IMG/VR virus record: IMGVR_UViG_3300023174_000218
Span: 1-53,744 of that record
Length of the DNA stretch: 53,744 bases
Reading direction: 5' to 3' (one strand)
Origin: a virus
Taxonomy: Duplodnaviria > Caudoviricetes
Shown here: positions 27,207 through 49,305 of the stretch, one piece after another
How positions within the stretch are numbered: the stretch's first letter is position 1
How the letters are laid out: each line of letters begins with the position of its first letter
Made by a program: the position numbers and the translations under genes
The notes under the pieces: generated by a model
Database searches by the model: none
The model's input: the letters and a program-made list of their open reading frames with translations, nothing else
Told to the model about the DNA's origin: nothing

Positions 27207-29527
27207 TATAAAGCACTTCCAATCTTCTTAAGAACATCGCTTTCACTAAGTTTTTTACCAATCATTTTAACAAGACGATCAGTTTCTTGTACACTTCCTT
27301 GAGCAATGTGTACCTTCATTTGTAAGTTAACAACAACGTTTTTAGAATTAGACCCACTATAAGCAGTTCCAATATTCATTCCCCCAGCTGGTCCACCAAG
27401 ATCTTCATTAAATCCGGAGCTAGTTAAAGAAGAACTTAAAGTTGGACTTGAAAGAGAAGTAAGAGAACTACTTGACATTGGTCCTTTTCTTAAACCAGAA
27501 GTAGTTTTTTTAGCCACAGACATAAGCTGTCCAGAGATTGCTCTAGGACCTGCAACAGATGAAGCAGTTAAATTTCCTCCAGTAGGTGCTGCCGGTGCTC
27601 CATTTAGATAAGGTGCCGGATTTATTTTAACACCCTTCTCATTGAGAAGTTCAAAGTGAAGGTGTGGGCCAGTAGAGTTACCTGCTCCAGGGGCTCCAGG
27701 TTTACCGCCAGACTTACCAACAACTTGTCCTGGAGAAACTTTTTGTCCTCTAGAAACATTGATTTGAGATAAGTGACCATAACGAGAAGCGGTACCATCT
27801 TCGTGTTTTACTTCAACCCAGTTTCCATAACCATTAGCATCGTTACCAATAGTACTAATAGCACCTGCTTCAACAGCAGTTAAAGGACTACCTACTGGTA
27901 TACCAAAGTCAATGCCATGGTGGTTTGAAGAAATACCTGGATGTTTAGAATTATCTCTTGGACCAAATCCAGAAGTTATAACTGCACCCTTTGGTACAGG
28001 GCTAACCATTGGTGTTGGAACCGAACTTCCACCAGGTCCACCAATTCCTAAGTTACCGTGATCATGTGGACCACCAGTAGCAAAACCAAGAAGACCACCA
28101 GCAGCAGCACCAATAGCAGCTCCTTGTGGACCAAAAAACATTCCAATTCCAGCACCCATACCGCCATATTTTGCAGCATTACCTGCACGTGAGCGCATAC
28201 TTCCTCTAGTACTTCCGCTTTGAATTGCACTTCCCGCAAGTCCTACCCCAGTTGCAACTAACCCACCTTTTAAAAATTTTCCACTCAGACCAACACCACC
28301 TCCGCCACCACCACCGCCAAGCAACCTAGTTAATACTCCAAATTGCACAAGACCTGAAATAGCCCCACTTATCGCACTGCCAAATCCGGCAAGAAGTCCT
28401 CCCATGTTTCCCGCATTAGGAAGGGTTTGTAAAATTCCTTTAAGAGTCATAAGGCCATCATTAACTGGACCAAGAGTATCTGCCATAGTACTGTAGGCGT
28501 CATTAAGCGCAGCAGTAGTGCGAAGTGATGCATCATATCCTCCAACTAAACCTTGTTCAGTTGCAGCAAGTTTTCTATTTTCACTTGAATTAAATCTAAA
28601 ATTAGCACGAAGAGGAGAGCTTTGATCTACACCCATTGCATTAAGAATCTTATTAGGATCTTTCATTTGCGATGCTGTAAGAGGTTTTCCATTAGAAGCA
28701 CGTGCAAGAATACCGGATTGGATCATCTGCATTAGCTGAGGATCGCCACCAGTAATTTGTTGAATGGTTGCGTAACCCTTACTGCCAGGGTTTAATACAA
28801 GAGCTGCTTGTTCTTTTGTGATCCTTTGACCACGATACAAGAAACTATATACGTCATTAATAATTGTGTTAGGTGGTTTTAAATTACCTTGAGTATCACG
28901 AATTTGAATACCAGCACGTAAAAAATTCATGCCGTTCATTCCCGCCATACTTGCGGCAGCCATCTCGTTACTCATACCAGACATGGCGCTTAATCCGCCA
29001 ATTTGTGACATGATATTTTTAGAACTTATTGAACTAGCTGTGTAACCACCTTGATACATTAAGTTCATTGCAGCCATGGTTGGACCCATAGCACTTGTTG
29101 CTCCGCCACCTACTTGTGCATTAGCTTGCATAATTGCTTGGCGTGAAGACATGCCACTAAGACCTGCGTAAGTATCTGCACCCAGGCGTTGCTTAACTGC
29201 ATCCATAGTATTAGGTGCGGCTTTCATATATGTGCCAGCACCAAATGCTGCTAAGCCAAGACCCATCCCAACTTTTTCAGCACGTGTAAATGAACCAAGA
29301 CCAAGACGTCCGGCGCCTGGTCTGCCTGCTGCAGCTTTTCCTGTAGCAGCTTCGGTTTCTTTAATACCTTTAGACCAGGTATCAACCATTTCGTCTACAA
29401 GTTTTTTAGCCTCTTTGAGATACTTAATAAACTCTTTAGGCATTCCTTCAAAATCAACTTGATCAGAGATAGGTGAAAAAGAGGTGGACTCAGCATCCGA
29501 TGGTGGGAACATACTTTGAGTTGCCAT
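27206..29527 (-). CDS. tape measure protein with M23 peptidase domain
   Basis: Ala/Gly/Met-rich helical region; ITSGFGPR...HHGIDF...YGNWV...YGHLS...GNSTGPHLHFE. Confidence 0.88.
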   Translation of the reverse strand: MATQSMFPPSDAESTSFSPISDQVDFEGMPKEFIKYLKEAKKLVDEMVDTWSKGIKETEAATGKAAAGRPGAGRLGLGSFTRAEKVGMGLGLAAFGAGTYMKAAPNTMDAVKQRLGADTYAGLSGMSSRQAIMQANAQVGGGATSAMGPTMAAMNLMYQGGYTASSISSKNIMSQIGGLSAMSGMSNEMAAASMAGMNGMNFLRAGIQIRDTQGNLKPPNTIINDVYSFLYRGQRITKEQAALVLNPGSKGYATIQQITGGDPQLMQMIQSGILARASNGKPLTASQMKDPNKILNAMGVDQSSPLRANFRFNSSENRKLAATEQGLVGGYDASLRTTAALNDAYSTMADTLGPVNDGLMTLKGILQTLPNAGNMGGLLAGFGSAISGAISGLVQFGVLTRLLGGGGGGGGVGLSGKFLKGGLVATGVGLAGSAIQSGSTRGSMRSRAGNAAKYGGMGAGIGMFFGPQGAAIGAAAGGLLGFATGGPHDHGNLGIGGPGGSSVPTPMVSPVPKGAVITSGFGPRDNSKHPGISSNHHGIDFGIPVGSPLTAVEAGAISTIGNDANGYGNWVEVKHEDGTASRYGHLSQINVSRGQKVSPGQVVGKSGGKPGAPGAGNSTGPHLHFELLNEKGVKINPAPYLNGAPAAPTGGNLTASSVAGPRAISGQLMSVAKKTTSGLRKGPMSSSSLTSLSSPTLSSSLTSSGFNEDLGGPAGGMNIGTAYSGSNSKNVVVNLQMKVHIAQGSVQETDRLVKMIGKKLSESDVLKKIGSAL

Positions 29528-31166: not shown

Positions 31167-32951
31167 TTACGCTGATGCGTTTCCGGTTAGTTGTCCAAGC
31201 TTAATGACAACAAACTCTGCTGGGTACTCAAGAGCTACACCTATTTCAATATTAACTTTACCTTGTTGAATATCGCTAAAGCTAGTTGTAGTATCGTCGC
31301 ACTTTACGTAAAATGCTTGAGCTGGATTTGTTCCACGTAGTCCACCTGATTGCCAGTAAGCAAGAAGGAAGCTACTTAAAGATGTGCGAATTTGAGACCA
31401 TAGACGTGAGTCATTGTTCTCAAAAAGAGCAAACGATGTTAGATCATTAATAGACTTCTCAATGTAGATTAAAGAACGTCGGATATTGATATAACGGTTG
31501 TTTGGAGTATTATCAAGAGTGCGGCCACCCATGATAACAATACCTGCGCCAGGAACCTGACGGATAGCATTAATTGGATCAACTGATGTATTGATAGCAT
31601 CAAGTTCAGCATTAGTAAACAAGTGCTCAGTAGATACAGCAAGAGCCATAACATTCTGAAGACCTGCTGGAGTCTTGGCTGGACCACGAGATGCATCAGT
31701 AGCAATGTACTGGCCAACAACACCGGCGCCAGGAGCTTGTAGGCGAGTTACGCCAATCCCCTTATTCACATCTGGAATGCTGTACCAAGGGTAGTAAGCT
31801 GCTGCAATATTTCCTGAAGTAACTCCAGAAAAAATAGCGTAAGTTGCACTTACTTGAGTTTGTGCAGCAGTTGCTGATAGTCCAGCAGGAGTATCAAAAA
31901 CTGCAAAACAATCATTGCGACTAGCTGCATAAGCAACTGCGTCACCATGAATTTGTGCTGTAAGAGTACTTGTTGCAGCATATGGAGCATCTGGTGCGTA
32001 AATAACTAGAGGGTTAAGTACGGAATCAAATGTTGACCATGCTCCTGCATAATCAGAACGACCAAGAGATGCACCATCTGATCCTCCAGCAAATCCAATA
32101 AAACCAGTAGTAATTGCTGGAGTTTTTGTATTATCTAAACCTACGCTGCTAATAGTAATTACTGAAGTAGGATTAGAGTTAACAATAGAAAGAACAAAGT
32201 TTCTATCTGTAGATGCCATGCTTAAATCTGAATAAGATTCAATTAAGGTTGTAGATGAGTTGCCATTAACAGTAGTTGTCTGATATACCTCAAGACCAAA
32301 ACGGCTAGCAGAACCAGAAGCAACAATTTTAACTGAATAGTTACCGGACCAAGATCCAGCGCTAGCAGCATTAATTGTAAATACTGGGTTAGAAGGTACG
32401 GTTACTACTACTGTAGCTGTTGCAGAAGCACCGGTTACGGCAGTTCCTGTAGCAGCACTTGTAACAGTAAATTGTGAACCTGAACGAGTAGCAATAGTTG
32501 CATTAGTTAGGTTAAAAGCTGTTGTTGAAAGTCCAGTAATAGATACTGTTTGTCCAACAGCAAATGTGTTAGTAGCTGTGTATGTAATTGTTCCAGAAGC
32601 TGCAGAGGCTGCAGTTACTGTAGCAGTAGTAGTGGTAGTAGTTCCAGTACCATCGTTAACAATCAAGGATCCTGTTCCAGGACCTGATCCGATAACACGC
32701 TTTACATATAGATTGCGGCCACCATTAGCAAAAAAGTTATAGGCAGCCCAAGTTGTTGGGTATAAGTCATTTAATCCACCAAAAGTCTTAACAAAATCTG
32801 TCCAAGTACTTACTAGAACAGGTGCTAATGTAGGACCTTGTGGAAGAGCTCCAGCAAATGCTCCGACAGCGTTTGCAGTGTTTGCAGGCTGCACAGCTTG
32901 AGGAAGAGCTACTTCCTGGATATAGACTCCGGGACGGGCAAGATTTGCCAT
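31167..32951 (-). CDS. tail sheath protein
   Basis: RPGVYIQE, FFANGG, YYPW, KTPAG, INAIR..PG.GI..MGGRTL, YINIRR, FENND..LW, PAEFVVI. Confidence 0.95.
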   Translation of the reverse strand: MANLARPGVYIQEVALPQAVQPANTANAVGAFAGALPQGPTLAPVLVSTWTDFVKTFGGLNDLYPTTWAAYNFFANGGRNLYVKRVIGSGPGTGSLIVNDGTGTTTTTTATVTAASAASGTITYTATNTFAVGQTVSITGLSTTAFNLTNATIATRSGSQFTVTSAATGTAVTGASATATVVVTVPSNPVFTINAASAGSWSGNYSVKIVASGSASRFGLEVYQTTTVNGNSSTTLIESYSDLSMASTDRNFVLSIVNSNPTSVITISSVGLDNTKTPAITTGFIGFAGGSDGASLGRSDYAGAWSTFDSVLNPLVIYAPDAPYAATSTLTAQIHGDAVAYAASRNDCFAVFDTPAGLSATAAQTQVSATYAIFSGVTSGNIAAAYYPWYSIPDVNKGIGVTRLQAPGAGVVGQYIATDASRGPAKTPAGLQNVMALAVSTEHLFTNAELDAINTSVDPINAIRQVPGAGIVIMGGRTLDNTPNNRYINIRRSLIYIEKSINDLTSFALFENNDSRLWSQIRTSLSSFLLAYWQSGGLRGTNPAQAFYVKCDDTTTSFSDIQQGKVNIEIGVALEYPAEFVVIKLGQLTGNASA

Positions 32952-34119: not shown

Positions 34120-34482
34120 TTAATAATTTATGGCTAAAGGCTCAGTATTATAAGAATCGCGGTTTTGGTAGGTTTTTAGCCTGTGACAGTTTGCACAAAG
34201 GGTTTGAAGATTTGCCAAACTATTGTTTGAACGATCCCCGTCTATATGGTCTACGTCTAACTGCATTCTATGCTCTGGTACAAACCCACATCGTTCACAA
34301 GTATCTTTTTTGTAAGCTACCCAAGGCCTACCTTTATTCACTCGAATACCTACTGTACATCTCCAACCAAATGAGCCTGTTATATTTCCTCGCCGTTTAA
34401 CACTAATAGGGCCACAATTTGAGCACAGAGCTGTTCTAAGCTCCGGGTCAATGTTTGATAGACGATGTATATGTTTTCCCAT
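34120..34482 (-). CDS. HNH endonuclease
   Basis: CERCGF...LDVDHIDGDRSNN...NLQTLCANCHRLKT; start trimmed to MGKHIH. Confidence 0.88.
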   Translation of the reverse strand: MGKHIHRLSNIDPELRTALCSNCGPISVKRRGNITGSFGWRCTVGIRVNKGRPWVAYKKDTCERCGFVPEHRMQLDVDHIDGDRSNNSLANLQTLCANCHRLKTYQNRDSYNTEPLAINY

Positions 34483-34498
34483 ACCTATATCATAAACG

Positions 34499-34522
34499 AA
34501 AAAACCCCCTGCGGAGGGGGTT
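34499..34522 (-). terminator. Rho-independent terminator
   Basis: AACCCCCT-CCGC-AGGGGGTT followed by a T-run. Confidence 0.8.
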
Positions 34523-34528
34523 AAATCG

Positions 34529-34753
34529 TTACTTCTTTTTAATTTTCTTGGCCAGAGCCTTGTCCATCTTAACGTCTTCTTTAGCTGATGGCTTCTTCTT
34601 ATCCATCTTCTTATCAGCCGCTTCAAACTTTTTCTTTTGAGCAGGTGTCATGCCTTTTTTTGCTTTGGCATCTTGCTTCTTATCAGCAGACTTTGACATA
34701 GGCTTCTTGCCTGACATCTTGCCCTTCATTCCACATCCACAGGTAGCGCACAT
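34529..34753 (-). CDS. small Lys-rich basic protein
   Basis: MCATCGCG... then many Lys; TAATG-coupled. Confidence 0.75.
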   Translation of the reverse strand: MCATCGCGMKGKMSGKKPMSKSADKKQDAKAKKGMTPAQKKKFEAADKKMDKKKPSAKEDVKMDKALAKKIKKK

Positions 34754-36444: not shown

Positions 36445-37233
36445 TTAAAGATACCGTTTTTTAGTACGGTAAAACCTTTTATAGGATCCACCCACTTGCT
36501 TATTGCCAGGCCCATATCCATCTTTTTCATACTGTTCTGTCAGCAGTTTTTGACTTACCTTGAACTCATCAGATGGCTTAGTAATTACCTTTGAAGACCA
36601 GTCATCCCTTTTAAATGGGGTAATTTGAGCTATGGGAGTCCCGGCAGGTAAAACCCCACTAAAAGTGTTCTTTACAAAAAATGGAAAATTTATAGGCCTA
36701 AAATAAGAGTCTGTATCTACAACACCACTAAGCGTATAAAAAGGGAGGTAAGGTGCATTAGCTGGATGGCTAATTAAAGTGCTGTAGCCTGCCGGAGTTT
36801 TAATAACGTAGGGGTTTATCCACTTATAGGCAAAAACGCAGTATTCAGAAGAAAAGGGCATGGTACCAATTTGTTCTATAGGGTGCATACTCACAGGTTT
36901 ATATTCAGGATTAAATGACCCTGATATGGTGTGGTGACCTTTTTCTTCATCATACTTAAATTCATAATCTTTAGATGTAACAATATAGTAACCTAAAGTT
37001 AAAACATCTAATACTGGGATACAACGCTTTATTGTAAATTCTTCATGCTTATGAGAATGATTTGGGTGGTTTATAGATACTCTATTGTCAATTTTTTTAT
37101 ACCATTCCGGTATATTATCAATACTTTTAACTACATTAACAGGAGAACTTTTTAAGTCAGCATCAGTAAGTAGAAACTCTATCGTCTTTTCTTTTGATGG
37201 TGAGCTACTTACTTTGTGCTTATTCTTGAACAT
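36445..37233 (-). CDS. dUTPase-like beta-fold protein (DUF6065-like), paralog 1
   Basis: IPEWYK, TIKRCIPVLD...GY, TPAGYS.L..HP.N, SGVVDTD, GTPIAQITPFKR..W. Confidence 0.7.
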   Translation of the reverse strand: MFKNKHKVSSSPSKEKTIEFLLTDADLKSSPVNVVKSIDNIPEWYKKIDNRVSINHPNHSHKHEEFTIKRCIPVLDVLTLGYYIVTSKDYEFKYDEEKGHHTISGSFNPEYKPVSMHPIEQIGTMPFSSEYCVFAYKWINPYVIKTPAGYSTLISHPANAPYLPFYTLSGVVDTDSYFRPINFPFFVKNTFSGVLPAGTPIAQITPFKRDDWSSKVITKPSDEFKVSQKLLTEQYEKDGYGPGNKQVGGSYKRFYRTKKRYL

Positions 37234-37984
37234 CTGTATCCTTTTTATATTTTTTAGGTACCCAAAGCTTAGATCGGTAATAACCAAACTGTACAGCCCT
37301 AGCTTTTTCAGCAATAAATTTTTCTTTAGGACCAAATACTCTAGATGTAGCTACCCATTCTTGTCTGTTTATTGGTATTAATTGTGCAAAGGGTGTGCCT
37401 TTTTCAATAATACCGGTCCAACCTTCTTTAAGAAAAAATGGAATATTTCCATTAGGAACAAATCTATCACTATCTACTATGCCGGATAAAGTTGTAAAAG
37501 GTAGTTGTGCTTGATTTAAAGGGTGTGTAACAAGTACACTCCAACCTTTAGGCACTTTCCATCCCCATTTACCATTCCATACCATGTGGTTGTGGGCGTG
37601 TCCTGCAGGCCTTGGAATAGTATACCCAATAGCACCTTTTCTTTCTGAAATCAACTGCCAATCAGTATTGCTATGTATATACTCTTCTTTAGAGTTTTTA
37701 TCTAAATATTTATATTCGATCTCTACCCCATCATTTTTAATAATTTCAATGTCAGCCCATGTAGTAAGAAAGTAACCTGAGTTAAGAGCATCAAGAAATG
37801 GCATACAAATTTTCATTCCAGCAGTTTTTAATTCTGGCTTATCTATATCTAAGTAACCAGTTTCTTTATTAATAAATGATTCCCCTTCTTTCCACCAATT
37901 AGGCAAAATAGATGCTGCTGGAATAGGGGTATTAATTGGCAACGTAAAATTTGGGTCTAATACAAATTCTATTTTTTTATACAT
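37220..37984 (-). CDS. dUTPase-like beta-fold protein (DUF6065-like), paralog 2
   Basis: LPNWWK, MKICMPFLD...GY, VPKGWS.L.THPLN, SGIVDSD, GTPFAQLIP..R..W. Confidence 0.7.
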   Translation of the reverse strand: MYKKIEFVLDPNFTLPINTPIPAASILPNWWKEGESFINKETGYLDIDKPELKTAGMKICMPFLDALNSGYFLTTWADIEIIKNDGVEIEYKYLDKNSKEEYIHSNTDWQLISERKGAIGYTIPRPAGHAHNHMVWNGKWGWKVPKGWSVLVTHPLNQAQLPFTTLSGIVDSDRFVPNGNIPFFLKEGWTGIIEKGTPFAQLIPINRQEWVATSRVFGPKEKFIAEKARAVQFGYYRSKLWVPKKYKKDTDVQE

Positions 37985-38000: not shown

Positions 38001-38336
38001 TTATTCTACAAATTTATTATCTTTATACTTGTAACCAACTTTTACCTTAGTAAGGTCTAATACTTGAATAATTGTTGGGTTACTTAATAAAATAGCGGCT
38101 AAATTTTCTTGACAATGCATAATTTCTACTACTTCATCGTCTAGTACAAAAGCAATATGTTTGGTTATTGAAGATGTGTCTGGCAATAAATTCTGCTGAA
38201 TAATAGTTTTCATTTGGAGATCTTTATACCAATGAAAATGAAACCCTAATTTATGAGGTAAAGATTTTATAAAGTTTTTTTTCTTACTTTTTTTATATTC
38301 CTTAAGTTCTTTTTTGTACCGATTATTGTTTGCCAT
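38001..38336 (-). CDS. small fibre-associated protein
   Basis: IAFVLDDEVVEIM...AAILLSNPTII...VG.KY....F. Confidence 0.7.
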   Translation of the reverse strand: MANNNRYKKELKEYKKSKKKNFIKSLPHKLGFHFHWYKDLQMKTIIQQNLLPDTSSITKHIAFVLDDEVVEIMHCQENLAAILLSNPTIIQVLDLTKVKVGYKYKDNKFVE

Positions 38337-38344
38337 TTTTACCC

Positions 38345-39523
38345 CTAGACTGTTACAAAGTTTACTTCATAACTAGAAAATGTAGTTCCTTGATTATAGT
38401 TTGCTGGTGCAAGAATCATACCATGAGTTGTAGTAGGTGTATAACCGGTAGCTGTATATGTCTGATCGGTGCCAATTTGGCTACCAAATCCTGAGGCTGA
38501 ATAGGCTCTTACTGTTATTTCTCCAGTATTTCCTTTAATTATTGTTTTAAGCCCAACAACTAAAGAAGAAAGAGTAAATGTTACTGCAGTGGTAATAGTT
38601 CCTGCTATAGATTTAAGAACGTTTACGGTATAGCTGTAGGAATAATTATAGTTGAAAGTATAGGCGTCATTACTTCCAGTAGCACAGGTATAAGAATAAG
38701 AATTACTTCCAGTAACACAAGTGTAAGTGTAAGAATTATCTCCGGTAACACAAGGGTAAGAGGAAGAATTATCTCCAGTAGCACAGCTGTAATAATAATA
38801 AGTTGTATATGAGTATGGAGTACAACGATATGCGTTGTAACCTTTTACACAGGTATAAGCAATGTAATAGCCTCCGTATACCTGCGAGTAACAAGTGCCG
38901 TAATTAGCGTTTCCACCAGTACAATAGTTTCCAGAGGAAGGATATGATCCAAGACATGATCCATAGTTAGTATTTCCAGCCGTATAGCAGGTGCCCCAGT
39001 TAGCATTGCCTGCAACAAAACAAGTGCCATAGTTAGCATTTCCAGCCGCATAGCAAGTACCGTAGTTAGTGCTAGCTGGAACATATTGAGTATCATAACT
39101 CTCAGTTGCATTAGTTGCTGTAGCCCACCAGTTATTACTATCTGTCACCCAGAAAGTAGCACCAACACCATTAGTTACGTTATCTTGAAGTATAGTGACA
39201 TCTGTAGCACCAAAGTCAATAGTAGCAATTGGATATGTGCTAGCAGCAGAGTTAGCTGTAGCTTTATTATCTATAATTCCCCAAGCCCCACGAATATTGT
39301 TCCAAGTATTAATTCCATCAGGAGAGCCTAAAGAAGTTGCGCTTGTAGTTCTTTGAAAACTATCTAGGAATATAGCTAAAAACCATTTCTTCCATACTCC
39401 GCCAACTTTAACCCAACCAGAAAGTACATTTCTCCAACTAGATGCTCCACCAGAAGTTACTTTTACAAGTATAGTTTTAGCAGCACGGTTCCAAGACCCA
39501 TCTACTTTAATTTGTGCTGGCAT
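38345..39523 (-). CDS. fibre-tip/receptor-binding protein with Cys/Tyr-rich insertion
   Basis: N-terminal KVDGSW...WVKVGGVWK motif, lectin-like beta-sandwich (FLDSF.R...HGM), internal 12-Cys repeat region. Confidence 0.7.
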   Translation of the reverse strand: MPAQIKVDGSWNRAAKTILVKVTSGGASSWRNVLSGWVKVGGVWKKWFLAIFLDSFQRTTSATSLGSPDGINTWNNIRGAWGIIDNKATANSAASTYPIATIDFGATDVTILQDNVTNGVGATFWVTDSNNWWATATNATESYDTQYVPASTNYGTCYAAGNANYGTCFVAGNANWGTCYTAGNTNYGSCLGSYPSSGNYCTGGNANYGTCYSQVYGGYYIAYTCVKGYNAYRCTPYSYTTYYYYSCATGDNSSSYPCVTGDNSYTYTCVTGSNSYSYTCATGSNDAYTFNYNYSYSYTVNVLKSIAGTITTAVTFTLSSLVVGLKTIIKGNTGEITVRAYSASGFGSQIGTDQTYTATGYTPTTTHGMILAPANYNQGTTFSSYEVNFVTV

Positions 39524-40455
39524 TACACGTACACCAACCAAATATCTCCATCAAGATATCCTGAGGTACTAGATGGTGCTGCGGTGTTTAAATAAATATT
39601 TCTTACTACGCCAGATGATGTACTAGCGGATGTAACTGCAGCGTTAGATGTAGCTAGGTAAGTAGTTGGGGTTACCCATGTAGCAGTTGTACCATTGCTT
39701 GTTAAAACGGTTCCAGAGGCTCCTAGAGCAAGTCTAGATACGGCTCCAGCTCCTGACCCAAGAATTAGATCTCCGGCCGTTGTAACGGTCGCTAAAGGGA
39801 TTTTAGAGGTATCTGTAGGCACACCCCAAGCAATAGATCCTGCACTTACAATAAGTGACTGACCATTAGACCCAATACCTAAACGACCAACAGTTGCTGA
39901 ACCTGAACCAATAATTAAATCGCCAGCGGTTGTAACGGTAGATAGTGGAATCTTAGCTGCGGCTGATGTTGTAGCTGTACCAATATTGGTAGTAATAGTT
40001 GAGTACTCTGAACTACCTACATAGAGAACGTTGCTAGATCCAACCTTAGGTAATCCTGCTGAATCTAAGTTAAAGTTAAGTGTGTTTGCAGATGAGTATG
40101 CTTCAATAAGGTTAAGGCTAGATGATCCAGCACGAAGAGTTAATCCTTTATTTGTAGTGGTAGTGATTGTGCTTCCACCCGCAGTTGATGCGTATGGCGC
40201 ACCTGTAACACCAGAAACAAGTCCTGCCTCAATATTAGCAAGACGGTCATATACAGTTCCCCAAAGAGTACCCTGAGAAAAAGATCCGGACCATGTTGAT
40301 ACCAGAGGGTTTTGGGATGTAGCAGCGCTACCTATTACTTCTTCAATCTTTTTAACTTCTTCTTGAAGGGAGTTAACGTTATCAGCAATAATTGTGTTGA
40401 CAAGATCCTGCTGGGCGGTGTAGTTTCTTACGCTATTGGGATATACGGCTGGCAT
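39523..40455 (-). CDS. tail fibre protein
   Basis: A.NVNSLQEEV..IE N-terminus; two KIPL.TVTTAGDLI.GSG...RL..G..G..L repeats; RNI.....AP.....DGDIWLVY end. Confidence 0.75.
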   Translation of the reverse strand: MPAVYPNSVRNYTAQQDLVNTIIADNVNSLQEEVKKIEEVIGSAATSQNPLVSTWSGSFSQGTLWGTVYDRLANIEAGLVSGVTGAPYASTAGGSTITTTTNKGLTLRAGSSSLNLIEAYSSANTLNFNLDSAGLPKVGSSNVLYVGSSEYSTITTNIGTATTSAAAKIPLSTVTTAGDLIIGSGSATVGRLGIGSNGQSLIVSAGSIAWGVPTDTSKIPLATVTTAGDLILGSGAGAVSRLALGASGTVLTSNGTTATWVTPTTYLATSNAAVTSASTSSGVVRNIYLNTAAPSSTSGYLDGDIWLVYV

Positions 40456-40499: not shown

Positions 40500-41057
40500 T
40501 TAGGAAGGGTTTATACGTTTAAAATTATCTATAATGGCAGCAGTATAGTTGCTTGGAATGTCCATAGTAAGTAATTTAGAAAATATAGCTTTTGACTCTT
40601 CTGATCTTCCTATCCACCAACCAGAAACAGCTTTTTCAAACTCTAAGGCAAATCTTCCTGGGTAACCTACAGCAACAGGTAGAGCAGGCTGCTCAACTTT
40701 AGAAAGACCCATAACAGCCCAAGTATAGGCATTATGCCATTCCGCCTTTTGTTCATAATATTGAGCCATAATAAAATAGGCTTCAGGGCGATCAGGGTTA
40801 ACTATCAATGCTTGGCGCCAACAATTAAGTACCGTATGCTCTCTATTATTTTGATTAGAAAAACAAACCGCCATTTTTAATAGGGAAGCATATGCCAGAT
40901 CATTGTGGGTATCCACTCCGTACTCAGCAGTCCTTAAATAAAAGGTTATTGCAGAAGCCGCCTGCTTTAATTCTTCGTACTTCATTGCTACCCTAAAGTT
41001 TAACTCCGGGTTAAAAGGGTCCTTAGACAGGTCTACTATCAACTCTTCAATTCTCAT
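40500..41057 (-). CDS. TPR-repeat protein
   Basis: Helical TPR-like motifs: A..FYLR.AE, AL...PDRPEAYF. Confidence 0.7.
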   Translation of the reverse strand: MRIEELIVDLSKDPFNPELNFRVAMKYEELKQAASAITFYLRTAEYGVDTHNDLAYASLLKMAVCFSNQNNREHTVLNCWRQALIVNPDRPEAYFIMAQYYEQKAEWHNAYTWAVMGLSKVEQPALPVAVGYPGRFALEFEKAVSGWWIGRSEESKAIFSKLLTMDIPSNYTAAIIDNFKRINPS

Positions 41058-42036
41058 AATTAAGAGCCTCCACGATTAATTCATCTACCAGTATTCCAGG
41101 GGTACGAAGAATAAAAGCGCAGTTATCGCTGACGCTAAAGCTTAGGAGTATATCCCCATCAAGCTTTGCCGCTCCAACGCAGAATTCAATTCGAGCATCT
41201 AAGAAAGAGAAGGGTTTAGATAAACCCACTAAATCTATATTGTTATCCCAGACACATAATCTATGACGATAGATACCGTCTTTTTGCATTAAGTAATTTT
41301 TAAATAGATCTACTTCATGGGTGATTGAGATGTAACCGTCACCCCATCTGACAAGTTGAGACCCCCCACGTTGATCTTTGTTTGGTCTGATACCTTGCTT
41401 GAGGGACACTTGTTTGGTAGTTTTGATTTCTGGGATGTATTGCACAACTTCCACAGGAGAAGCCCACTTAATAAAATTATAAGGCCTATCAGCAATAGGC
41501 ATCCAGTTTTTTTCACAGTATGAGGTATCAGGTTCTGGAGTCGGGATACGATCACGGTTAACCTCTTTAACAGTCCAAGTTTCTTTATCAATATCTATCT
41601 GGGTAAGTTCCATACGACCTTGACCACTAGTTGTGGTATCACGCCGCACCCCTATAATGTAATACTTATTATCCCATTGAACAAGGCGAGCATCTTCTAA
41701 ACCAACAAACTCCCAGATAGGAGTGTGTAGATTTAACATTTCTACCCTTGCGTGGTTAATTACTTCAAGGTTTTTATCTAACCTTACTAAGTAGTTTTCA
41801 GTAATTAAACGTTGATCTTTTTCAGGGTGTAGGTATGCCAAAGGTCCCCACGGGGATGGGAAAAGCTGCTTGTTCTCAGAATGATAAAGCGTGTAGTTAG
41901 TAGCTCTGACATTAACTAAGATATCTCCGTCATTATCTATGTAGATAGATGGATTCATCAGAGCTATCAGATCATGCGAAAAAACTAAAGGAGCTAACTT
42001 ACCACCACCCTGTACCGATTTTTGCACCAGATTCAT
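41047..42036 (-). CDS. five-bladed beta-propeller glycoside hydrolase-like protein
   Basis: NPSI, GLEDARL, CEKNWMP, RGGSQL, YRHR, IEFCVG, F.V.D (GH130/GH43-like propeller). Confidence 0.7.
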   Translation of the reverse strand: MNLVQKSVQGGGKLAPLVFSHDLIALMNPSIYIDNDGDILVNVRATNYTLYHSENKQLFPSPWGPLAYLHPEKDQRLITENYLVRLDKNLEVINHARVEMLNLHTPIWEFVGLEDARLVQWDNKYYIIGVRRDTTTSGQGRMELTQIDIDKETWTVKEVNRDRIPTPEPDTSYCEKNWMPIADRPYNFIKWASPVEVVQYIPEIKTTKQVSLKQGIRPNKDQRGGSQLVRWGDGYISITHEVDLFKNYLMQKDGIYRHRLCVWDNNIDLVGLSKPFSFLDARIEFCVGAAKLDGDILLSFSVSDNCAFILRTPGILVDELIVEALNYEN

Positions 42037-42329: not shown

Positions 42330-43193
42330 TTAGTAGTAAATATAAACAACGCCGTTACCGCCTGAACCAGCAGTACCACCAGTAGGACAAGCACCACCAC
42401 CGCCTCCACCAGTTCCACCATTTCCTGCTGTAGCGCCCGAAGCGTTAGAACCTGCTCCCGTATATCCTGCGCCACCGCCACCAGCACCAAAAGATGTGCC
42501 AGTACCAGTTGAACCTGTACCACCTGCGCCACCATTGCCTGTACCACCTGCACCACCAGTTGCAATACCTACTGTTGACAATGAACCACCGCCACCGCCA
42601 ATTAGCCCTGCTCCACCTGCTCCCGCAGATTGATTTCCTGTGGTTCCAATATTTCCACCACCGCCGCCACCTGAAACACCAGCACCGCCAATATTAGGAG
42701 TTCCACCATTTACTGCGTTTGCACCATTTCCTGCATAACCAATGGTACCTATTGGAGCACCTGTATAAGAAACACCTCCAGCAGAACCACCACCAGTTGA
42801 CCCACCCCCACCACCGCCACCAATTCCTACTGACCCGCTAGCACCGCTTGAACCTTGTCCACCTGCTCCACCGCCACCAATAACCATTCCATAAACACTT
42901 GAACCGCCAACGGTTGAACCACCGAAAGTATTACCTCCTGTTCCGCCAGCACCAACGGTTACGGAAGTTGAAACATAAGTCCAACCAGCAGAATAACCAC
43001 CTGCTCCACCACCGCCTGCACCTGTTGTTGCAGAACCGCCACCGCCACCGCCGCCAATTACAATTGCATACACTCTTTGAATACCAGTTGGGATTGTTAC
43101 AGGAAAAGTTCCAGGCGTAGAAAATGTCTGTCGTAACTGCAACCCATAGGGGGTATCACTAAACTGTGAATTGTTATATATTGAGACGCTCAT
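42330..43193 (-). CDS. glycine-rich adhesin-like protein, type B
   Basis: PYGLQLRQTFSTPG, GGYSAGWTYVS, SSVYGMV, SYTGAP, GNGVVYIYY. Confidence 0.8.
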   Translation of the reverse strand: MSVSIYNNSQFSDTPYGLQLRQTFSTPGTFPVTIPTGIQRVYAIVIGGGGGGGSATTGAGGGGAGGYSAGWTYVSTSVTVGAGGTGGNTFGGSTVGGSSVYGMVIGGGGAGGQGSSGASGSVGIGGGGGGGSTGGGSAGGVSYTGAPIGTIGYAGNGANAVNGGTPNIGGAGVSGGGGGGNIGTTGNQSAGAGGAGLIGGGGGSLSTVGIATGGAGGTGNGGAGGTGSTGTGTSFGAGGGGAGYTGAGSNASGATAGNGGTGGGGGGACPTGGTAGSGGNGVVYIYY

Positions 43194-43217
43194 ATAGACT
43201 CCTTATTAGTTATTGTA

Positions 43218-44081
43218 TTAGTAAAAAAGGTAAAGTATTCCTGCGCCACCGTTGCCAATTGCGTTGTTAGGATTACCACCACCACCGCCACCGCCAAGAC
43301 CACCAGCGCCACCAGCGCCGCCGCCTGCACCGTTACCTGCTATTCCAGCACCACCACCACCTGCGCCACCAGAGTTACCTGTGCCACCAGTAGTTACCGC
43401 GCCTGTTAAAATGTTTATTCCATTGCCGCCATTACCACCTAATTTAGTTCCTGAAGTGTAAACAGCAGCACCACCACCACCTGCTAAGCCATTACCGCCG
43501 TTACCGCCATTGTGGTTTCCAGTACTAGCAGAATTGCTACCGCCTGCGCCGCCAGAAATACCATCTCCACCTGCTCCACCGTTTGAACCTGATGTTGAAA
43601 TAGCCCTTCCACCACCGCCACCTGAACCAGAACCTGCTTTTGATGTTGTAACTCCAATAGACCCACCTGGTATGCCCCAATAATTAGTTGCACCTAGTCC
43701 ATCAGTACCACCACCACCACCAAGTATTCCATTATTACCACCACCACCGCCAGGGCCTGCAATTACATTTCCATAGCGCGTATAACCTCCAGAAGTTCCA
43801 ACAACACAACTAGAAGTTGCGATAGTCCAACCCCAAGCAATACCACCTGCACCGCCTGCAGAATAACCACCAGCACCACCACCACCAACAGCAATTGCAT
43901 AAACAAATGTAATTCCACTAGGAATTGTGACTGATGTAGTTCCAGCGTTGATTGTTTGTTGTAGTTGTAATCCATGCGGCAAAATAAAATGGCTAAACCC
44001 ATTAGCAGGAGCAGTATTAGCTGAAGGATTCCAACTAGACACTTGAGTGGCTGCTTTATTTCTTATGTATAAGTTTTTCAT
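43218..44081 (-). CDS. glycine-rich adhesin-like protein, type A
   Basis: QVSSWN, AWGWTIATSSC, YTRYGNVIAG, NGINILTGA, GAGILYLFY. Confidence 0.8.
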   Translation of the reverse strand: MKNLYIRNKAATQVSSWNPSANTAPANGFSHFILPHGLQLQQTINAGTTSVTIPSGITFVYAIAVGGGGAGGYSAGGAGGIAWGWTIATSSCVVGTSGGYTRYGNVIAGPGGGGGNNGILGGGGGTDGLGATNYWGIPGGSIGVTTSKAGSGSGGGGGRAISTSGSNGGAGGDGISGGAGGSNSASTGNHNGGNGGNGLAGGGGAAVYTSGTKLGGNGGNGINILTGAVTTGGTGNSGGAGGGGAGIAGNGAGGGAGGAGGLGGGGGGGNPNNAIGNGGAGILYLFY

Positions 44082-44090
44082 AACTATCTC

Positions 44091-44999
44091 CTAGTAAAAC
44101 AAATAAAGAATACCTGCGCCACCTGCGCCTGCAGTACCTGAACCTGAGCCACCGCCTCCACCGCCAAGTCCACCAGCACCACCAGTAGTTCCTGATGCCG
44201 CAGTTCCATTACCAGCAATACCACCACCACCACCACCTGCGCCGTTTGTACCAGTTCCTGTTGAACCTGCACCGCCAGTTGTAATTGCGCCAGTAAGAAT
44301 GTTTATTCCGTTGCCGCCAGTTCCGCCAGTACGAGTACCAGTACCTGCTTCAACAAGTCCTCCACCACCACCTGCTAAACCATTACCACCATTGCCGCCA
44401 GTATTTGTTTGAGAACCTGTTGCTCGTGATGAACCACCGCCACCGCCTGAGATTCCATTACCACCATTACCGCCAGTAATTGTTGTAGAACTTCCAAAAC
44501 CACCACCTGCACCAGAACCTGAGCCACCAGTTGTTGTTGTTGAAGTACCAGCAACACCGCCTGGTATTCCATAATAATTAGTTGCGCCAGCACCAATTGT
44601 TGAATAACCGCCGCCACCTGCTGAACCTAAAATTCCATTACTTTGTGCATTACCGCCACCGCCAGCGATTATGTTTCCATAACGAGTATAACCGCCATTA
44701 CCTGTACTAAAACCAGTACCACCAGCACCAACAATGCAACTAGAAGTTGCAATAGTCCAACCCCAAGCGACTCCACCTGCCCCACCTTGATTAGCACCAC
44801 CACCACCAACTGCAATTGCGTAAACAAAAGTTATACCTGCTGGAATTGATACAGAGGTTGTACCAGCGTTGATTGTTTGCTGTAATTGAAGGCCATAAGG
44901 TAAAATAAATGAAGTTAATCCATTAGGAGTGGCATTATCGTTTTGATTCCAGGTAGAAACCTGAGAACCAACTTCACCTCTAGGTAGATATTGATGCAT
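44091..44999 (-). CDS. glycine-rich adhesin-like protein, type A
   Basis: Same conserved blocks as 43218..44081. Confidence 0.8.
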   Translation of the reverse strand: MHQYLPRGEVGSQVSTWNQNDNATPNGLTSFILPYGLQLQQTINAGTTSVSIPAGITFVYAIAVGGGGANQGGAGGVAWGWTIATSSCIVGAGGTGFSTGNGGYTRYGNIIAGGGGNAQSNGILGSAGGGGYSTIGAGATNYYGIPGGVAGTSTTTTGGSGSGAGGGFGSSTTITGGNGGNGISGGGGGSSRATGSQTNTGGNGGNGLAGGGGGLVEAGTGTRTGGTGGNGINILTGAITTGGAGSTGTGTNGAGGGGGGIAGNGTAASGTTGGAGGLGGGGGGSGSGTAGAGGAGILYLFY

Positions 45000-45009: not shown

Positions 45010-46185
45010 TTAGATTATACGGTTAACGTATCCTGAGATTGCAATAGCGTTAGCTTGAGAAGCATATGCATAGATTGCAGAATAGTTTGTAGAAGCATTA
45101 GGAGACAAAATTAAACCTGGATTTATAAGAGTCAAACCAGAGTTTCCAGGAATTGTAATAGTCATTTCCTGTGATGGAGTTGCTAATGCCTGTGGGAATG
45201 TAGATGCGGCACCAAATGTCTGAGGTCCGCCTACTATTAAAGATAGAACAACCGCTGAGTTTGTTAAGTTAGTTGCGTATAACCAGACCTCATCAAGACC
45301 ACCACCAGTATTGTTATGTATAAATGTACCAATAGCAGGAAGTGCTGATGCGGTACCTGTCTGTGCTGAAAGAATTGTTGTGAGAGTTGATGGAACAGAT
45401 ACTGTAAATCCAAATGCATATGTTGTTGATGTTGGGGCGGCTAAAGTTGATACAGAGAGAATTGGTGTTGAACCAACGTTATAACCTGTAGTAGTTAAAC
45501 CAGATACACCTACTAATTGAGTTGCGGCAAATATTTGGGCGTTAGTAGAGTACACATAAGAGTATAAAGCGTTATAAGAGGTTGCTGTACCTGACTGAGA
45601 GGTGAGTGCAATAGCAGATGTGCTAAATGGAACTGATGCGGTAAAGGTAGTAGATGATGGGACGGTTACAATTGTAATGTTTGCTAAGTTAGCAAGTGCT
45701 GAGTTAGTTCCTGATAGACCCGTAATAGTGACGGTCTGACCAACAAGAAAACCGTGAGCCGCAGATGTTGTGTATGTAACTGTGTTTGTGTTACCAGTTA
45801 ATGCTGCTGCGGTTACAGTTGCAGTTGTATTTGATACCGCTACCGTTGCTGTACCACCTGATGTGTAAGATTGTGAAGCAACTGCGCTGGTTACAGTGAA
45901 AGAAGAGCCTGTAGCAGATGTAATAATTGCGTTAGTTAAGTTGGCGTTAGTAAAACCAACAATACCTGTAATAGTAACAACTTGACCAGCAGTAAATGTA
46001 TTAGTTGCTGTATAGGTAATTACAGAACCAGTAGTTGTTGCGTTGGTAATTGTTGCAGTAATAGCTGTACCAACTGGCGCCTGAACGTTAGCAACTGTAC
46101 CAGTGGCTAAAAGAGTAGGAGTAGTAACAAGGGTGGGGAAAGAGTTAGATTGCCCTGATAAAATTACCTTGCTATATGTTGCCAT
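45010..46185 (-). CDS. fibre adaptor protein with inserted Thr-rich beta-domains
   Basis: MATYSK..LSG N-terminus and IH...DEVWLYA.N...GL.L..PGLIL...ISGYVNRI C-terminal core, separated by about 260 aa of repeats. Confidence 0.65.
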   Translation of the reverse strand: MATYSKVILSGQSNSFPTLVTTPTLLATGTVANVQAPVGTAITATITNATTTGSVITYTATNTFTAGQVVTITGIVGFTNANLTNAIITSATGSSFTVTSAVASQSYTSGGTATVAVSNTTATVTAAALTGNTNTVTYTTSAAHGFLVGQTVTITGLSGTNSALANLANITIVTVPSSTTFTASVPFSTSAIALTSQSGTATSYNALYSYVYSTNAQIFAATQLVGVSGLTTTGYNVGSTPILSVSTLAAPTSTTYAFGFTVSVPSTLTTILSAQTGTASALPAIGTFIHNNTGGGLDEVWLYATNLTNSAVVLSLIVGGPQTFGAASTFPQALATPSQEMTITIPGNSGLTLINPGLILSPNASTNYSAIYAYASQANAIAISGYVNRII

Positions 46186-46713: not shown

Positions 46714-47529
46714 TTAGTAATAAAGAAGTACTACTCCATTACCTCCATCACCACCTCTACCATTTGTTGCTGCACCGCCTCCTCCACCTCCGCCTGCACC
46801 GCCAGTACCGCCATTAATACCAAAACCTGGTGAACCTGCGCCTAAAAATCCAGCACCTCCACCTCCACCACCTGGATTATTAGTGCTACCAATTCCTCCA
46901 GAATAAAAGTCTCCAGTACCGCCTACTCCACCAGTTCCTGTTGTTCCTCCTCCTCCGCCACCTCCACAAATTAAACCTCTACCCCCCGTAAAACCAGTTC
47001 CAAAATTATTTGTGCCCCCTCCTCCGCCTGTTGATACACCGTCTCCGCCATTGTTAAATCCATTTCCAGCCCCAGAAGCATAACTAATTCCACTAGCACT
47101 AGCGGAAGGTGCGCCAGTATAAGAAATAGTTGAGTTTTGATTTGTTGGGGTTGCGACTCCTGCAGCGCCTCCACCGTTTCCAGTAATCAAACTTCCTCCT
47201 CCACCACCAGCCATCACCATTCCGTAAATTGATGAACCACCAACAGCACCAGTACCAACAACCGCTGTGCCAATACCACCAGCGCCTACTATTACTGTAT
47301 TTGAAACATAAGTCCAGCCTTGTGAGTATCCACCAGCTCCACCGCCTCCAGTTCCTACAGTAGTAGAAGAACCCCCTGCACCACCGCCACCAATTACGAT
47401 TGCATAAACTCTTTTAATATGAGATGGAATTGTTACAGATGAAGTTCCAGGGGTAGAAAATGTCTGTTGCAATTTAAGCCCCAAAGGAGTATCACTATAC
47501 TGTGGACTTTGATTAATATCACTACTCAT
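46714..47529 (-). CDS. glycine-rich adhesin-like protein, type B
   Basis: QTFSTPG, GGYSQGWTYVSN, SSIYGMVMAG, ISYTGAP, GNGVVLLYY. Confidence 0.8.
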   Translation of the reverse strand: MSSDINQSPQYSDTPLGLKLQQTFSTPGTSSVTIPSHIKRVYAIVIGGGGAGGSSTTVGTGGGGAGGYSQGWTYVSNTVIVGAGGIGTAVVGTGAVGGSSIYGMVMAGGGGGSLITGNGGGAAGVATPTNQNSTISYTGAPSASASGISYASGAGNGFNNGGDGVSTGGGGGTNNFGTGFTGGRGLICGGGGGGGTTGTGGVGGTGDFYSGGIGSTNNPGGGGGGAGFLGAGSPGFGINGGTGGAGGGGGGGAATNGRGGDGGNGVVLLYY

Positions 47530-47538
47530 TATTACTCC

Positions 47539-48375
47539 TTAATACCATAGAAAAACAGCGCCATTTCCTCCAGAACCTGCTAAGCCTAATGTTGAGGCAC
47601 CACCGCCACCGCCTCCGCCTAAACCACCATTACCACCATTATTTGCTATTGCATTAGCCCCAGCAGAAAGATAACCAGCACCACCACCACCACCACCAAA
47701 ACCAAAACCTGTTCCTGATGAACCTGTGCCACCTGCAAAGAAATCGCCAGTACCACCAGCACCGCCTGTGCCTGTACCTGCTGTTCCTGCTGCTCCGCCT
47801 CCGCCTGTGATTAGACCACGACCTGAAGCAAATGCAGTTACAGTTCCAGTTACTGTTGCTGAACCAGCACCGCCTCCGCCTGAAACACCGCCAACGCTAG
47901 GGCCACCAAGAGAACCGCCACCTGCATAACCAACTGAACCACTTGTAGCCGCTGGCGCACCAGTATAAGAAATTGTTGAAGTAGCAGTTGTTGAAGGAGT
48001 TGCGCCTGAACCTGCTCCTGCCTGTTGTCCGTTTGTTGAACCAGCACCACCACCAGCCATCACCATTCCGTAAATTGATGAACCACCATTAGCACCAGCA
48101 GCCGCAGTTGAAGTTCCAGCACCACCAGTTCCAACAGTTACTGTGTTTGAAACATAAGTCCAACCTTGTGAGTATCCTCCTGCTCCACCGCCTCCACCGC
48201 CACCAGTTGCCTGTGATGAACCTGCTCCACCACCACCAATTACTACAGCCCATACACGGTTAATTCCTGCAGGAATAGTAACTGGAAATGTTCCAGGAGT
48301 AGAAAAAGTTTGTTGTAGCTTTAAATTGTACGGCGAATCAACAAATGATGAATTCTTATAAATGTCTATGCTCAT
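47539..48375 (-). CDS. glycine-rich adhesin-like protein, type B
   Basis: Same blocks as 46714..47529; shares a 42-nt identical DNA stretch with it. Confidence 0.8.
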   Translation of the reverse strand: MSIDIYKNSSFVDSPYNLKLQQTFSTPGTFPVTIPAGINRVWAVVIGGGGAGSSQATGGGGGGGAGGYSQGWTYVSNTVTVGTGGAGTSTAAAGANGGSSIYGMVMAGGGAGSTNGQQAGAGSGATPSTTATSTISYTGAPAATSGSVGYAGGGSLGGPSVGGVSGGGGAGSATVTGTVTAFASGRGLITGGGGAAGTAGTGTGGAGGTGDFFAGGTGSSGTGFGFGGGGGGAGYLSAGANAIANNGGNGGLGGGGGGGASTLGLAGSGGNGAVFLWY

Positions 48376-48384
48376 AGTTGTCTC

Positions 48385-49299
48385 CTAGTAAAAAAGATAA
48401 ATCAATCCTGCGCCGCCATTAGCACCCGAACCACCGCCACCGCCACCAAGTCCGCCAGCACCACCAACTGTTCCTGATGCAGCATTTCCATTACCTGCCA
48501 CTCCTGCACCGCCACCGCCACCGCCGTTTGCGTTTGTTCCAACAGACCCAGTACCACCACGCAAAGGTGCCCCCGTTAAAATGTTTATTCCTGATCCGCC
48601 GTTACCACCAGTACGAAAACCAGTTGAGGTAATTGCTCTCCCTCCACCTCCACCTGCTAAACCTGAACCACCATTACCACCAGTTTCAATTCCTGTTCCT
48701 GTAGTAGCAAGACCGCCACCGCCACCTGAAATACCATTTCCGCCATTACCGCCAGGAATACCAGGAGTAAATGAATAACCCCCTCCTCCTCCTCCACAAC
48801 CAACATTTCCGTTACCAGGCGTTCCTGAAGCACTATTAAAGCCACCAGTTCCCGCAACAATTCCCCAATAATTTGTTCCACCTGCTTGCGGATTTATTCC
48901 AAGTTGTCCACCTGCTCCGCCACCTCCCAATATTCCAGTAGCGGTACTTGGAAGAGCGCCACCGCCAGCAATAACGTTTCCGTAACGTGTATGACCACCT
49001 CCTGAAACACCAGAAGCACCTCCAGCACCAACAATGCAAGATGAAGTTGCAATAGTCCAGCCCCAAGCAATTCCACCTGCACCGCCGCCTGCCGCAGAAC
49101 CACCACCGCCACCGCCAACTGCAATGGCGTAAACCCAGTTAATACCATTTGGTATTATTACTGTTCCAGTAGATAATAAAGTTTGGCGCAATTGCAAACC
49201 ATAAGGAGTAATAGTAGAACCAGTAATAACAAAATTGGATGACGGAAACCAACTTGATACTTGTGAGGATACTTCGCCTTGTTTTAAATGTTTATTCAT
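48385..49299 (-). CDS. glycine-rich adhesin-like protein, type A
   Basis: SQVSSWF, AWGWTIATSSC, TRYGNVIAG, GINILTGA, GAGLIYLFY. Confidence 0.8.
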   Translation of the reverse strand: MNKHLKQGEVSSQVSSWFPSSNFVITGSTITPYGLQLRQTLLSTGTVIIPNGINWVYAIAVGGGGGGSAAGGGAGGIAWGWTIATSSCIVGAGGASGVSGGGHTRYGNVIAGGGALPSTATGILGGGGAGGQLGINPQAGGTNYWGIVAGTGGFNSASGTPGNGNVGCGGGGGGYSFTPGIPGGNGGNGISGGGGGLATTGTGIETGGNGGSGLAGGGGGRAITSTGFRTGGNGGSGINILTGAPLRGGTGSVGTNANGGGGGGAGVAGNGNAASGTVGGAGGLGGGGGGSGANGGAGLIYLFY

Positions 49300-49305
49300 A
49301 ATTTA

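Follow-up and report, generated by a model that had tools for sequence, protein, structure and literature searches.

The window analysed here is the whole of the virus record IMGVR_UViG_3300023174_000218 (Caudoviricetes), which comprises 53,744 bases with a completeness estimate of 54%. The gene in question, situated at 38345..39523 on the minus strand (stop codon included; taken from the list of open reading frames, ORFs), encodes a 392-aa protein of the tail-fibre module, referred to below as the ladder protein. It is probably a tail adhesin in which a lectin-like core carries an extended out-and-back hairpin with six nested Cys pairs, forming a disulfide-stapled receptor probe that can be adjusted rung by rung; the probability of this reading is put at about 0.62. 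Its parts differ in strength: the nested topology of two arms is highly probable, the assignment of the rungs as disulfides is fairly probable, and an extended monomeric ribbon is about evenly balanced against a trimeric needle or a compact stack. We infer receptor binding from the fold, the position and the divergence of the protein; that the hairpin is a drawn-out ribbon of two strands and not a compact stack, and that the protein is a monomer, are inferences too.

The ladder protein contains 12 Cys, at residues 157, 168, 179, 190, 201, 211, 225, 234, 247, 258, 269 and 280 in the 392-aa numbering, and none outside residues 157–280. All of them are located in a hypervariable insert (38636..39103, residues 141–296, minus strand), delimited by the sequence, the alignment of homologs and a drop in model confidence. 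In the translated ORF the Cys spacings are 11,11,11,11,10,14,9,13,11,11,11, exactly those given in the original prediction, which had been made from the sequence alone and had described a mirror-symmetric ladder. Every other sequence element named there is present as well: outgoing repeats of the NYGTC type and returning repeats of the SYxYTC type around a VYGGYY centre (residues 215–220), and a Tyr-rich segment, 31 of the protein's 39 Tyr residues falling within 154 residues (38640-39100).

The outgoing arm (38891..39076, residues 150–211, minus strand) bears Cys 1–6 in repeats of the form (Y/F)xAGNxNYGTC, and the contexts of its successive Cys are NYGTC, NYGTC, NWGTC, NYGSC, GNYC and NYGTC. 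The tip YSQVYGGYYIAYT, with the turn at G217-G218, occupies 38852..38890 (residues 212–224, minus strand), and the AlphaFold2 (AF2) strands 206–215 and 219–229 flank the two Gly residues. The returning arm (38663..38851, residues 225–287, minus strand) bears Cys 7–12 in repeats of the form xTG(D/S)NSYxYTC, with the contexts AYTC, AYRC, YYSC, SYPC, TYTC and SYTC. When the Cys are paired from the outside inwards, the index sums are 437, 437, 437, 437, 435 and 436. The palindromic gap score of the query is 3, a value reached by 0/20,000 random placements of 12 Cys in a 156-aa insert. Furthermore, a Gly lies opposite an aromatic residue 8 times at the Cys register (sum 437), 7 and 9 times at registers shifted by 11 in either direction, and 1–6 times in other registers.

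At the DNA level, the arms correspond to two separate 33-nt direct-repeat arrays, one at 38669-38798 for the returning arm (3.9 copies, 80% matches) and one at 38961-39069 for the outgoing arm (3.3 copies, 72% matches), where repeat families D1/D3 also lie. Inverted DNA repeats were not found across the ladder region, so the mirror symmetry exists at the protein level only and a DNA palindrome is ruled out as its source. An 88-aa ORF at 38845-39111, which overlaps the ladder repeats in another frame, is taken as spurious.

The ladder protein belongs to a large family. A word-index search yields 35 relatives, and an exhaustive search yields 390 representative clusters at E <= 0.001, of which 188 also pass E <= 1e-10. 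Neither Pfam nor PHROGs has a family for the protein, none of 50,697 phage records matches it in tblastn, and the UniProt members of the family are labelled 'uncharacterized protein'. Common to all relatives are a Cys-free N-terminal half (...FWVTDSNNWWAT) and a C-terminal half (...ITVRAYS...QIGSDQ...HGI), which enclose an insert, about 69 to 420 residues long and unalignable between subfamilies. In the 67 proteins in which the first patterns locate both anchors, the flanks contain no Cys, bar a single N-terminal Cys in 4 of them.

Across this family, the Cys are kept in pairs. The parity count covers 150 representatives whose pairwise identity does not exceed 50%; an even Cys count is found in 136/150 and, among those with any Cys, in 133/147 (binomial P = 8e-26). 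In the complete set of 180 proteins, 160 have a non-zero even count, which is 2 mod 4 in 90 and 0 mod 4 in 70; as counts of 0 mod 4 are not preferred, the conserved unit is the Cys pair and not a four-Cys site. The arms are also balanced. Of the representatives that have both anchors and no fewer than 6 Cys, 79 in all, 49 show equal Cys numbers in the two halves of the insert, against 15.4 expected, and the differences between the halves are -4 (5), -2 (16), -1 (1), 0 (49), +2 (5), +4 (2) and +12 (1). The centre of the nested sums lies within 5 residues of the median offset to the insert midpoint in 86/104 members, a result not leaned on here because random Cys placement centres there too.

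The spacing of the Cys is likewise mirrored. In members with at least 8 Cys and an even count, the query included, the palindromic score was compared protein by protein with 2,000 shuffles of the Cys gaps, and it reaches P < 0.05 in 80/157 members and P < 0.01 in 51/157. Over 129 representatives, the mirror score averages z = -1.94 and a direct-repeat control z = -0.07, z < -2 is attained in 68/129 versus 11/129, and the mirror score is better than the direct-repeat score in 108/129. Constant nested sums persist at other periods (5, 7, 8 and 12-13 aa); the sum is 381 in 8/10 nested pairs of P0099, 332 in 5/6 of P0065, 504-506 in P0105 and mostly 627 in P0028, which has 42 Cys. Judged from these sequence patterns, parity, palindromic spacing and arm balance together support a nested out-and-back hairpin and do not fit a solenoid.

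A gain or loss of repeats in matched pairs had been named beforehand as the test of such a hairpin, and it is seen among 8 close homologs with 62-92% identity. In P0006, an extra 11-aa unit without Cys is present between C3 and C4 and again between C9 and C10, which are mirror positions on the same rung; at the Cys site, the outgoing unit has Tyr and the returning unit has Gly. The gaps of P0006 accordingly read 11,11,22,11,10,28,8,13,22,11,11, and its nested sums are 472 five times and 470 once. In P0007 and P0008, approximately 10 residues with one Cys near the tip are missing from each arm, resulting in a 5+5 form that also occurs in loci L001-L005 and L018-L020. Only the tip loop varies independently, by +3 aa in P0003 and P0005 and by +13 aa in P0004 and P0006. 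In a distant subfamily, L046, L047 and L048 (ladder-family genes on the plus strand, L046:2959-4683, L047:1037-2722 and L048:2959-4611) are near-identical metagenomic genes with 32-34 Cys, and L057, a more distant relative, has 44 more residues than L046 in each arm. The antiparallel, nested hairpin put forward in the original prediction thus finds support for its topology in matched indels, parity, palindromic spacing and arm balance.

The scaffold from which the hairpin departs is well modelled. An AF2 model of the ladder protein, built from a 101-sequence alignment, has a predicted local distance difference test score (pLDDT) above 90 over residues 20-150 and 290-390, the Cys-free flanks. 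The first half of a ConA-like sandwich (39104..39379, residues 49-140, minus strand; pLDDT >90) ends in ...FWVTDSNNWWAT, and the second half (38348..38635, residues 297-392, minus strand; pLDDT 95-98) is covered by the same VIA-align matches. These include the CBM66 structure 4b1m (Z 16.4, root-mean-square deviation 2.4, 148 residues aligned), the TM4 gp23 receptor-binding domain 9n6a (Z 15.4), the baseplate protein 8zdo of mycobacteriophage Douge (Z 15.4) and legume lectins (Z about 12). A two-sheet jelly-roll sandwich of the ConA-like type, a fold of about 150-200 residues, is thereby confirmed for the modelled flanks. As the matches span both flanks (model residues 49..392), the lectin-like domain is interrupted in one of its loops by the ladder, which bears out the lectin-like beta-sandwich of the original prediction.

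Ahead of the sandwich, an N-terminal region of approximately 48 aa (39380..39523, minus strand) is composed of beta-strand repeats with KV.G.W motifs, modelled at pLDDT 72-93 as strands 4-7, 10-13, 18-24, 27-33, 35-40 and 43-49. Many of the shorter family members are without this region, their matches starting near query residue 49, and it may serve as the attachment part. Within the insert, where pLDDT falls to 39-69 and confidence is low, the AF2 model turns at G217-G218 of VYGGYY and pairs the strands 206-215/219-229, 186-198/237-249 and 178-180/255-257, mirrored about i+j = 435. In the BFVD, the best matches of the model are six family members from 'uncultured Caudovirales phage' (E 2e-25 to 2e-13), followed by minor tail or tail fibre proteins of Gordonia, Arthrobacter, Rhodococcus and Mycobacterium phages.

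In the proposed mechanism, the gene would encode a distal tail-fibre or adhesin protein with the ConA-like sandwich (residues 49-140 and 297-392) as its core, and a loop of the sandwich would send out a two-armed antiparallel hairpin of about 150 residues. Six 11-residue units, each ending in Cys, would lead outwards to the turn at VYGGYY, and six units ending in Cys would lead back, placing Cys k opposite Cys 13-k. The reading therefore predicts a specific pairing, C1-C12 through C6-C7. The rungs would most likely be disulfides formed when the particle meets oxidising conditions, stiffening the Tyr/Asn/Gly-rich ribbon, and the tip and faces of the ribbon would contact a host surface structure. 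Length would be tuned by gain or loss of 33-nt units in the two separate arrays, with selection keeping those variants whose two arms change together.

Several observations weigh against this picture. An odd Cys count occurs in 14/150 representatives, some of which are fragments; Cys are absent altogether from 5/180 family proteins, so the fold is independent of the staples; and the loci and clusters in the family counts are not all independent. As the majority of its gaps are 11, the query itself has a palindromic score just slightly better than shuffles of those gaps (P = 0.041). The AF2 model of the insert is of low confidence throughout (pLDDT 39-69), and a Foldseek search of the whole model against the PDB returns weak rows, with no match at E <= 0.001. 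Regarding balance, on which the original prediction had staked the hairpin, the 8 close homologs are balanced, but L047 and L048 of the distant subfamily are not, an outcome that the prediction had named as refuting: L047 is short of a 13-aa unit solely in its outgoing arm (33 Cys), and L048 is short of two 12-aa units solely in its returning arm (32 Cys). This imbalance may reflect either real alleles or repeat collapse in short-read assemblies. In L046, the arm periods are 13 and 12 aa and the nested sums drift by 1 per rung, so that its arms are not an ideal in-register ribbon. Similarly, the odd 11-residue period places successive rungs on alternate faces of an ideal ribbon, and bulges or another geometry are therefore needed. 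Finally, phage particles assemble in a reducing cytoplasm, and among the ORFs of the window, in a record 54% complete, there is no thiol oxidase or thioredoxin-like gene.

The same evidence bears on the arrangements that compete with a monomeric, disulfide-stapled ribbon. The hairpins of three chains could intertwine into a six-stranded trimeric needle like the T4 gp37 tip, in which the Cys rungs would either link the chains by disulfides or face the core. The trimer is the usual state of phage fibres, and the gp37 chain also goes out and returns; matched arm changes, even counts and mirror spacing fit a needle equally well, and a ribbon of approximately 65 residues per arm would be stabler in a bundle. 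The needle is nonetheless judged unlikely: the insert leaves a loop of a lectin sandwich, a fold that is monomeric in the matched structures, it contains no His-x-His metal motif (the only His of the ladder protein, residue 367, lies outside it, in the C-terminal sandwich half), and no computed result speaks for a trimer. A three-copy complex prediction of residues 138-302, run without controls, gave a score of 0.00 and counts neither way. Alternatively, each unit could consist of a short strand and a turn, so that an arm would be a meander sheet and the two sheets, tied by nested Cys pairs, would build a compact two-layer domain of about 3 nm. The Gly-Asn or Gly-Asp-Asn turn-like motifs found in every ladder unit suit such a stack, as do the odd period and arm periods that can differ (13 versus 12 aa in L046), and matched indels and parity fit it too. 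A stack of this kind is quite unlikely all the same, since the AF2 model, although of low confidence, draws strands of 10-13 residues and not of 4, and members with periods of 5-8 aa have too few residues for a strand plus a turn.

Two further alternatives concern the chemistry of the rungs and the path of the chain. Paired Cys could stay reduced or bind metal, the arms being held by Tyr/Gly packing; cytoplasmic assembly, the 5/180 members without Cys and the lack of an oxidase gene among the window ORFs point in that direction. Even counts without a preference for multiples of four, however, fit two-Cys units better than four-Cys metal sites, and particles live in oxidising water. The original prediction had called stapling unusual for a virion protein assembled in the cytoplasm; phage Milano provides a precedent, showing that tail disulfides do form (PMC10811340). 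Non-disulfide rungs are accordingly held to be improbable. A beta-solenoid, in which Cys would stack in a ladder or form disulfides within coils as in insect antifreeze proteins and internalin J, would involve no out-and-back path, and short regular repeats with one Cys each are what it has in its favour. Against it, the two repeat types are segregated into halves instead of alternating, indels affect one unit in each half, the spacing is palindromic and not translational (by the mean z values given above), and a stacked ladder does not require even parity; a solenoid is thus scarcely credible. Among these arrangements, the nested out-and-back hairpin with disulfide rungs remains the preferred one.

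The insert is also the most variable portion of the protein, with 43-83% identity to close homologs compared with 69-99% for the flanks. In sister contigs (L003-L005, L019 and L020), identity is 92-94% for the flanking genes, 73-75% for the upstream fibre gene, 78-84% for the DUF6065 genes and 67% for the ladder protein. L006 combines the same flanking genes (92-94% identical) with a ladder-family member of 37% identity that has 22 Cys (L006:4481-5719, plus strand), an arrangement that in its sequence context looks like a cassette swap; L006 contains one DUF6065 gene only. Across the sister contigs in which the ladder gene is 37-67% identical, the TPR gene and the 329-aa gene (40500-42036) are 92-94% conserved. 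No reverse transcriptase is present among the 56 ORFs scanned in this approximately 54% complete record, and the ladder region has no second copy, only the internal 33-nt arrays within 38600-39150. With neither a reverse transcriptase nor a template repeat in the window, the ladder gene does not qualify there as a target of a diversity-generating retroelement, though such an element may lie elsewhere in the genome.

All large ORFs of the window are on the minus strand. PHROG matches identify a replication module (DNA polymerase, UvsX-like recombinase, DnaB-like helicase and primase), a contractile tail with baseplate wedge proteins, sheath (31167-32951) and tube, and a tail protein with an M23 peptidase domain. 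The latter, of 773 aa (27206-29527, minus strand; Pfam E 8e-26), likely digests the cell wall. Two HNH endonuclease genes are located at 8755-9231 and 34120-34626 (minus strand), one between the helicase and primase genes and the other after the tail sheath module.

Fibre genes, assigned by PHROG matches, form a long run from approximately 42 to 53 kb. Among them, a collagen-repeat fibre protein (50208-51686, minus strand; Pfam Collagen E 2e-36) begins with four Cys in 13 residues (CxxxCxxCxxC), its sole Cys. Seven paralogous glycine-rich proteins of 271-304 aa are encoded at 42330-44999 and 46714-50208 (minus strand); one of them (46714-47529) has a Pfam Gly_rich_2 match, and they comprise two subtypes by their N-termini and end in ...LYLFY or ...VYIYY. 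A 391-aa Thr/Ser/Ala-rich protein (45010-46185, minus strand) contains a Pfam E1_FCCH-like repeat (E 8e-10) and a C-terminal phrog_30535 match, and its homolog precedes a low-Cys branch of the ladder family (4-6 Cys) in L049-L063. Between the fibre genes and the ladder operon, at 40500-42036 (minus strand), lie the genes of a TPR protein (185 aa) and of a 329-aa protein without a family.

The ladder gene is the last of the fibre-gene run. Its ORF gives 392 aa from an ATG and 398 aa from an upstream TTG, and the start Met of the shorter form is common to 8/8 close homologs. The ATG overlaps the TAA of the preceding gene by 1 nt (TAATG). That gene (39523..40455, minus strand), encoding a fibre-like protein of 310 aa with a weak PHROG match to 'virion structural protein', is translationally coupled to the ladder gene, judging by this overlap, and it precedes the ladder gene in the sister contigs too, at 73-75% identity.

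Downstream, a 111-aa Lys-rich protein without a family is encoded at 38001..38336 (minus strand), 8 nt after the ladder gene. The family gene is complete and followed by 2.5 kb or more of DNA in 36 loci; in 24 of them a homolog of this protein comes after the ladder-family gene. The protein could be an assembly helper. Two DUF6065 paralogs, 27% identical to each other, come next: a DUF6065/phrog_7084 protein with a dUTPase-like fold (37220..37984, minus strand; PHROG E 3.8e-36) and a second one (36445..37233, minus strand; PHROG E 6.9e-43, weak Pfam DUF6065 match). At least one DUF6065 gene occurs within 4 kb downstream on the same strand in 30/36 loci, and upstream in 2 more. The AF2 model of the protein at 37220..37984 has a pLDDT of 92.8; its top 22 VIA-align matches are all dUTPase or dCTP deaminase, with a best Z of 9.2, and Foldseek gives 14 dUTPase-family matches at E <= 1e-3. 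A dUTPase-like fold can therefore be assigned to the modelled DUF6065 neighbours with confidence. A role as 2-oxoglutarate/cupin oxygenases modifying the Asn/Tyr/Cys repeats was considered for them and rejected, as the model is dUTPase-like and cupins reach only Z 3.1-3.5. DUF6065 gives no sequence match in the PDB, with the single protein or with a profile, and no mention of it was found in the literature search.

Concerning the host, the best match of the tail sheath is Streptomyces phage BRock at 34.5% identity. This match and the BFVD matches hint at an actinobacterial host but do not amount to proof. In prokaryote genome contigs, a first scan found no family member and a second yielded 2 loci, the one on a 12-kb contig from a metagenome-assembled genome of Bacteroidetes and the other, a weak match, in such a genome of Gammaproteobacteria; neither furnishes usable host evidence.

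The host range of phages is set by receptor-binding proteins, whose known variable parts are loops, swapped domains and retroelement-mutated patches. The ladder protein is a member of a widespread, undescribed variant of these proteins, common to hundreds of uncultured phages: a lectin-fold adhesin with a long hairpin whose length changes in matched steps, its Cys kept paired in relatives that number in the hundreds and have diverged widely. Disulfide rungs, if confirmed, would make it the longest known cystine ladder and would show a virus building a rigid, protease-resistant probe from low-complexity repeats. Somewhat short of even odds is the wider proposal that a disulfide-stapled 'antenna' on a lectin domain, extended rung by rung, is a general and undescribed host-recognition device of a large group of uncultured lake phages, probably those of actinobacteria. 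If this tentative proposal is true, how far the tip extends into the host envelope would depend on the rung count (0 to >20 Cys pairs in relatives), and adding or removing repeats in pairs would be a simple genetic means of adjusting host range. The ladder would then be nature's parallel to the stalks of ultralong antibodies and could serve as a scaffold for engineering.

A literature search on disulfide or cysteine ladders and on cysteine-rich phage tail or receptor-binding proteins found no description of such a phage protein, and no solved structure of the ladder insert was found. A phage adhesin of the lectin fold that bears a repeated ladder, with 6 to >20 rungs, is not among the known systems compared here. 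The ConA-like phage receptor-binding domains (9n6a and 8zdo) and the CBM66 structure 4b1m possess the same sandwich, with Z 15.4-16.4 and 148-177 residues aligned across both flanks; among cultured phages, the nearest look-alikes in the BFVD are minor tail proteins of actinophages, and the ladder protein is likewise encoded in the tail region. However, the identity to the ConA-like matches is 9-14%, no matched chain covers the insert, and the Cys hairpin is without a counterpart there. Agrobacterium phage Milano, which has a contractile tail, contains disulfides in tail, baseplate and short-tail-fibre proteins, including intrachain bonds in the short tail fibre, and oxidised Cys in a phage tail is thus established (PMC10811340). 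The Milano bonds are scattered inter- and intra-chain links, whereas the ladder would be a repeated nested set on one hairpin.

Nested rungs themselves are known from small peptides. In theta-defensins, three parallel disulfides connect two antiparallel strands (PMC13408038). The likeness would lie in the two antiparallel strands with nested parallel Cys pairs, the pairing in the ladder protein being the predicted one. Theta-defensins are 18-residue peptides with a cyclic backbone and a Cys at every second residue, whereas the ladder has 6 rungs at distances of 9-14 residues (mostly 11) in an insert of about 150 residues, its relatives reach 21-23 Cys pairs, and there is no sequence relation between the two. 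Hairpins of the protegrin and tachyplesin type are cystine-ladder hairpins as well. The tip of the T4 long tail fibre, the gp37 needle (PDB 2XGF), is an intertwined trimer with iron bound on His-x-His motifs; it would resemble the ladder in being a receptor-binding tip whose chain runs out to the end and back, and differs in that the ladder insert has no His. The ultralong CDR H3 (complementarity-determining region) of bovine antibodies forms a stalk and knob, with disulfides in the knob and somatic diversity. It shares with the proposed hairpin a long two-stranded beta-ribbon that projects a binding tip from a beta-sandwich. The disulfides of the antibody, however, lie in the knob and its diversity is somatic, whereas in the ladder protein the Cys are distributed along the proposed stalk and diversity is generated by the gain and loss of repeats and by the swapping of genes between phages.

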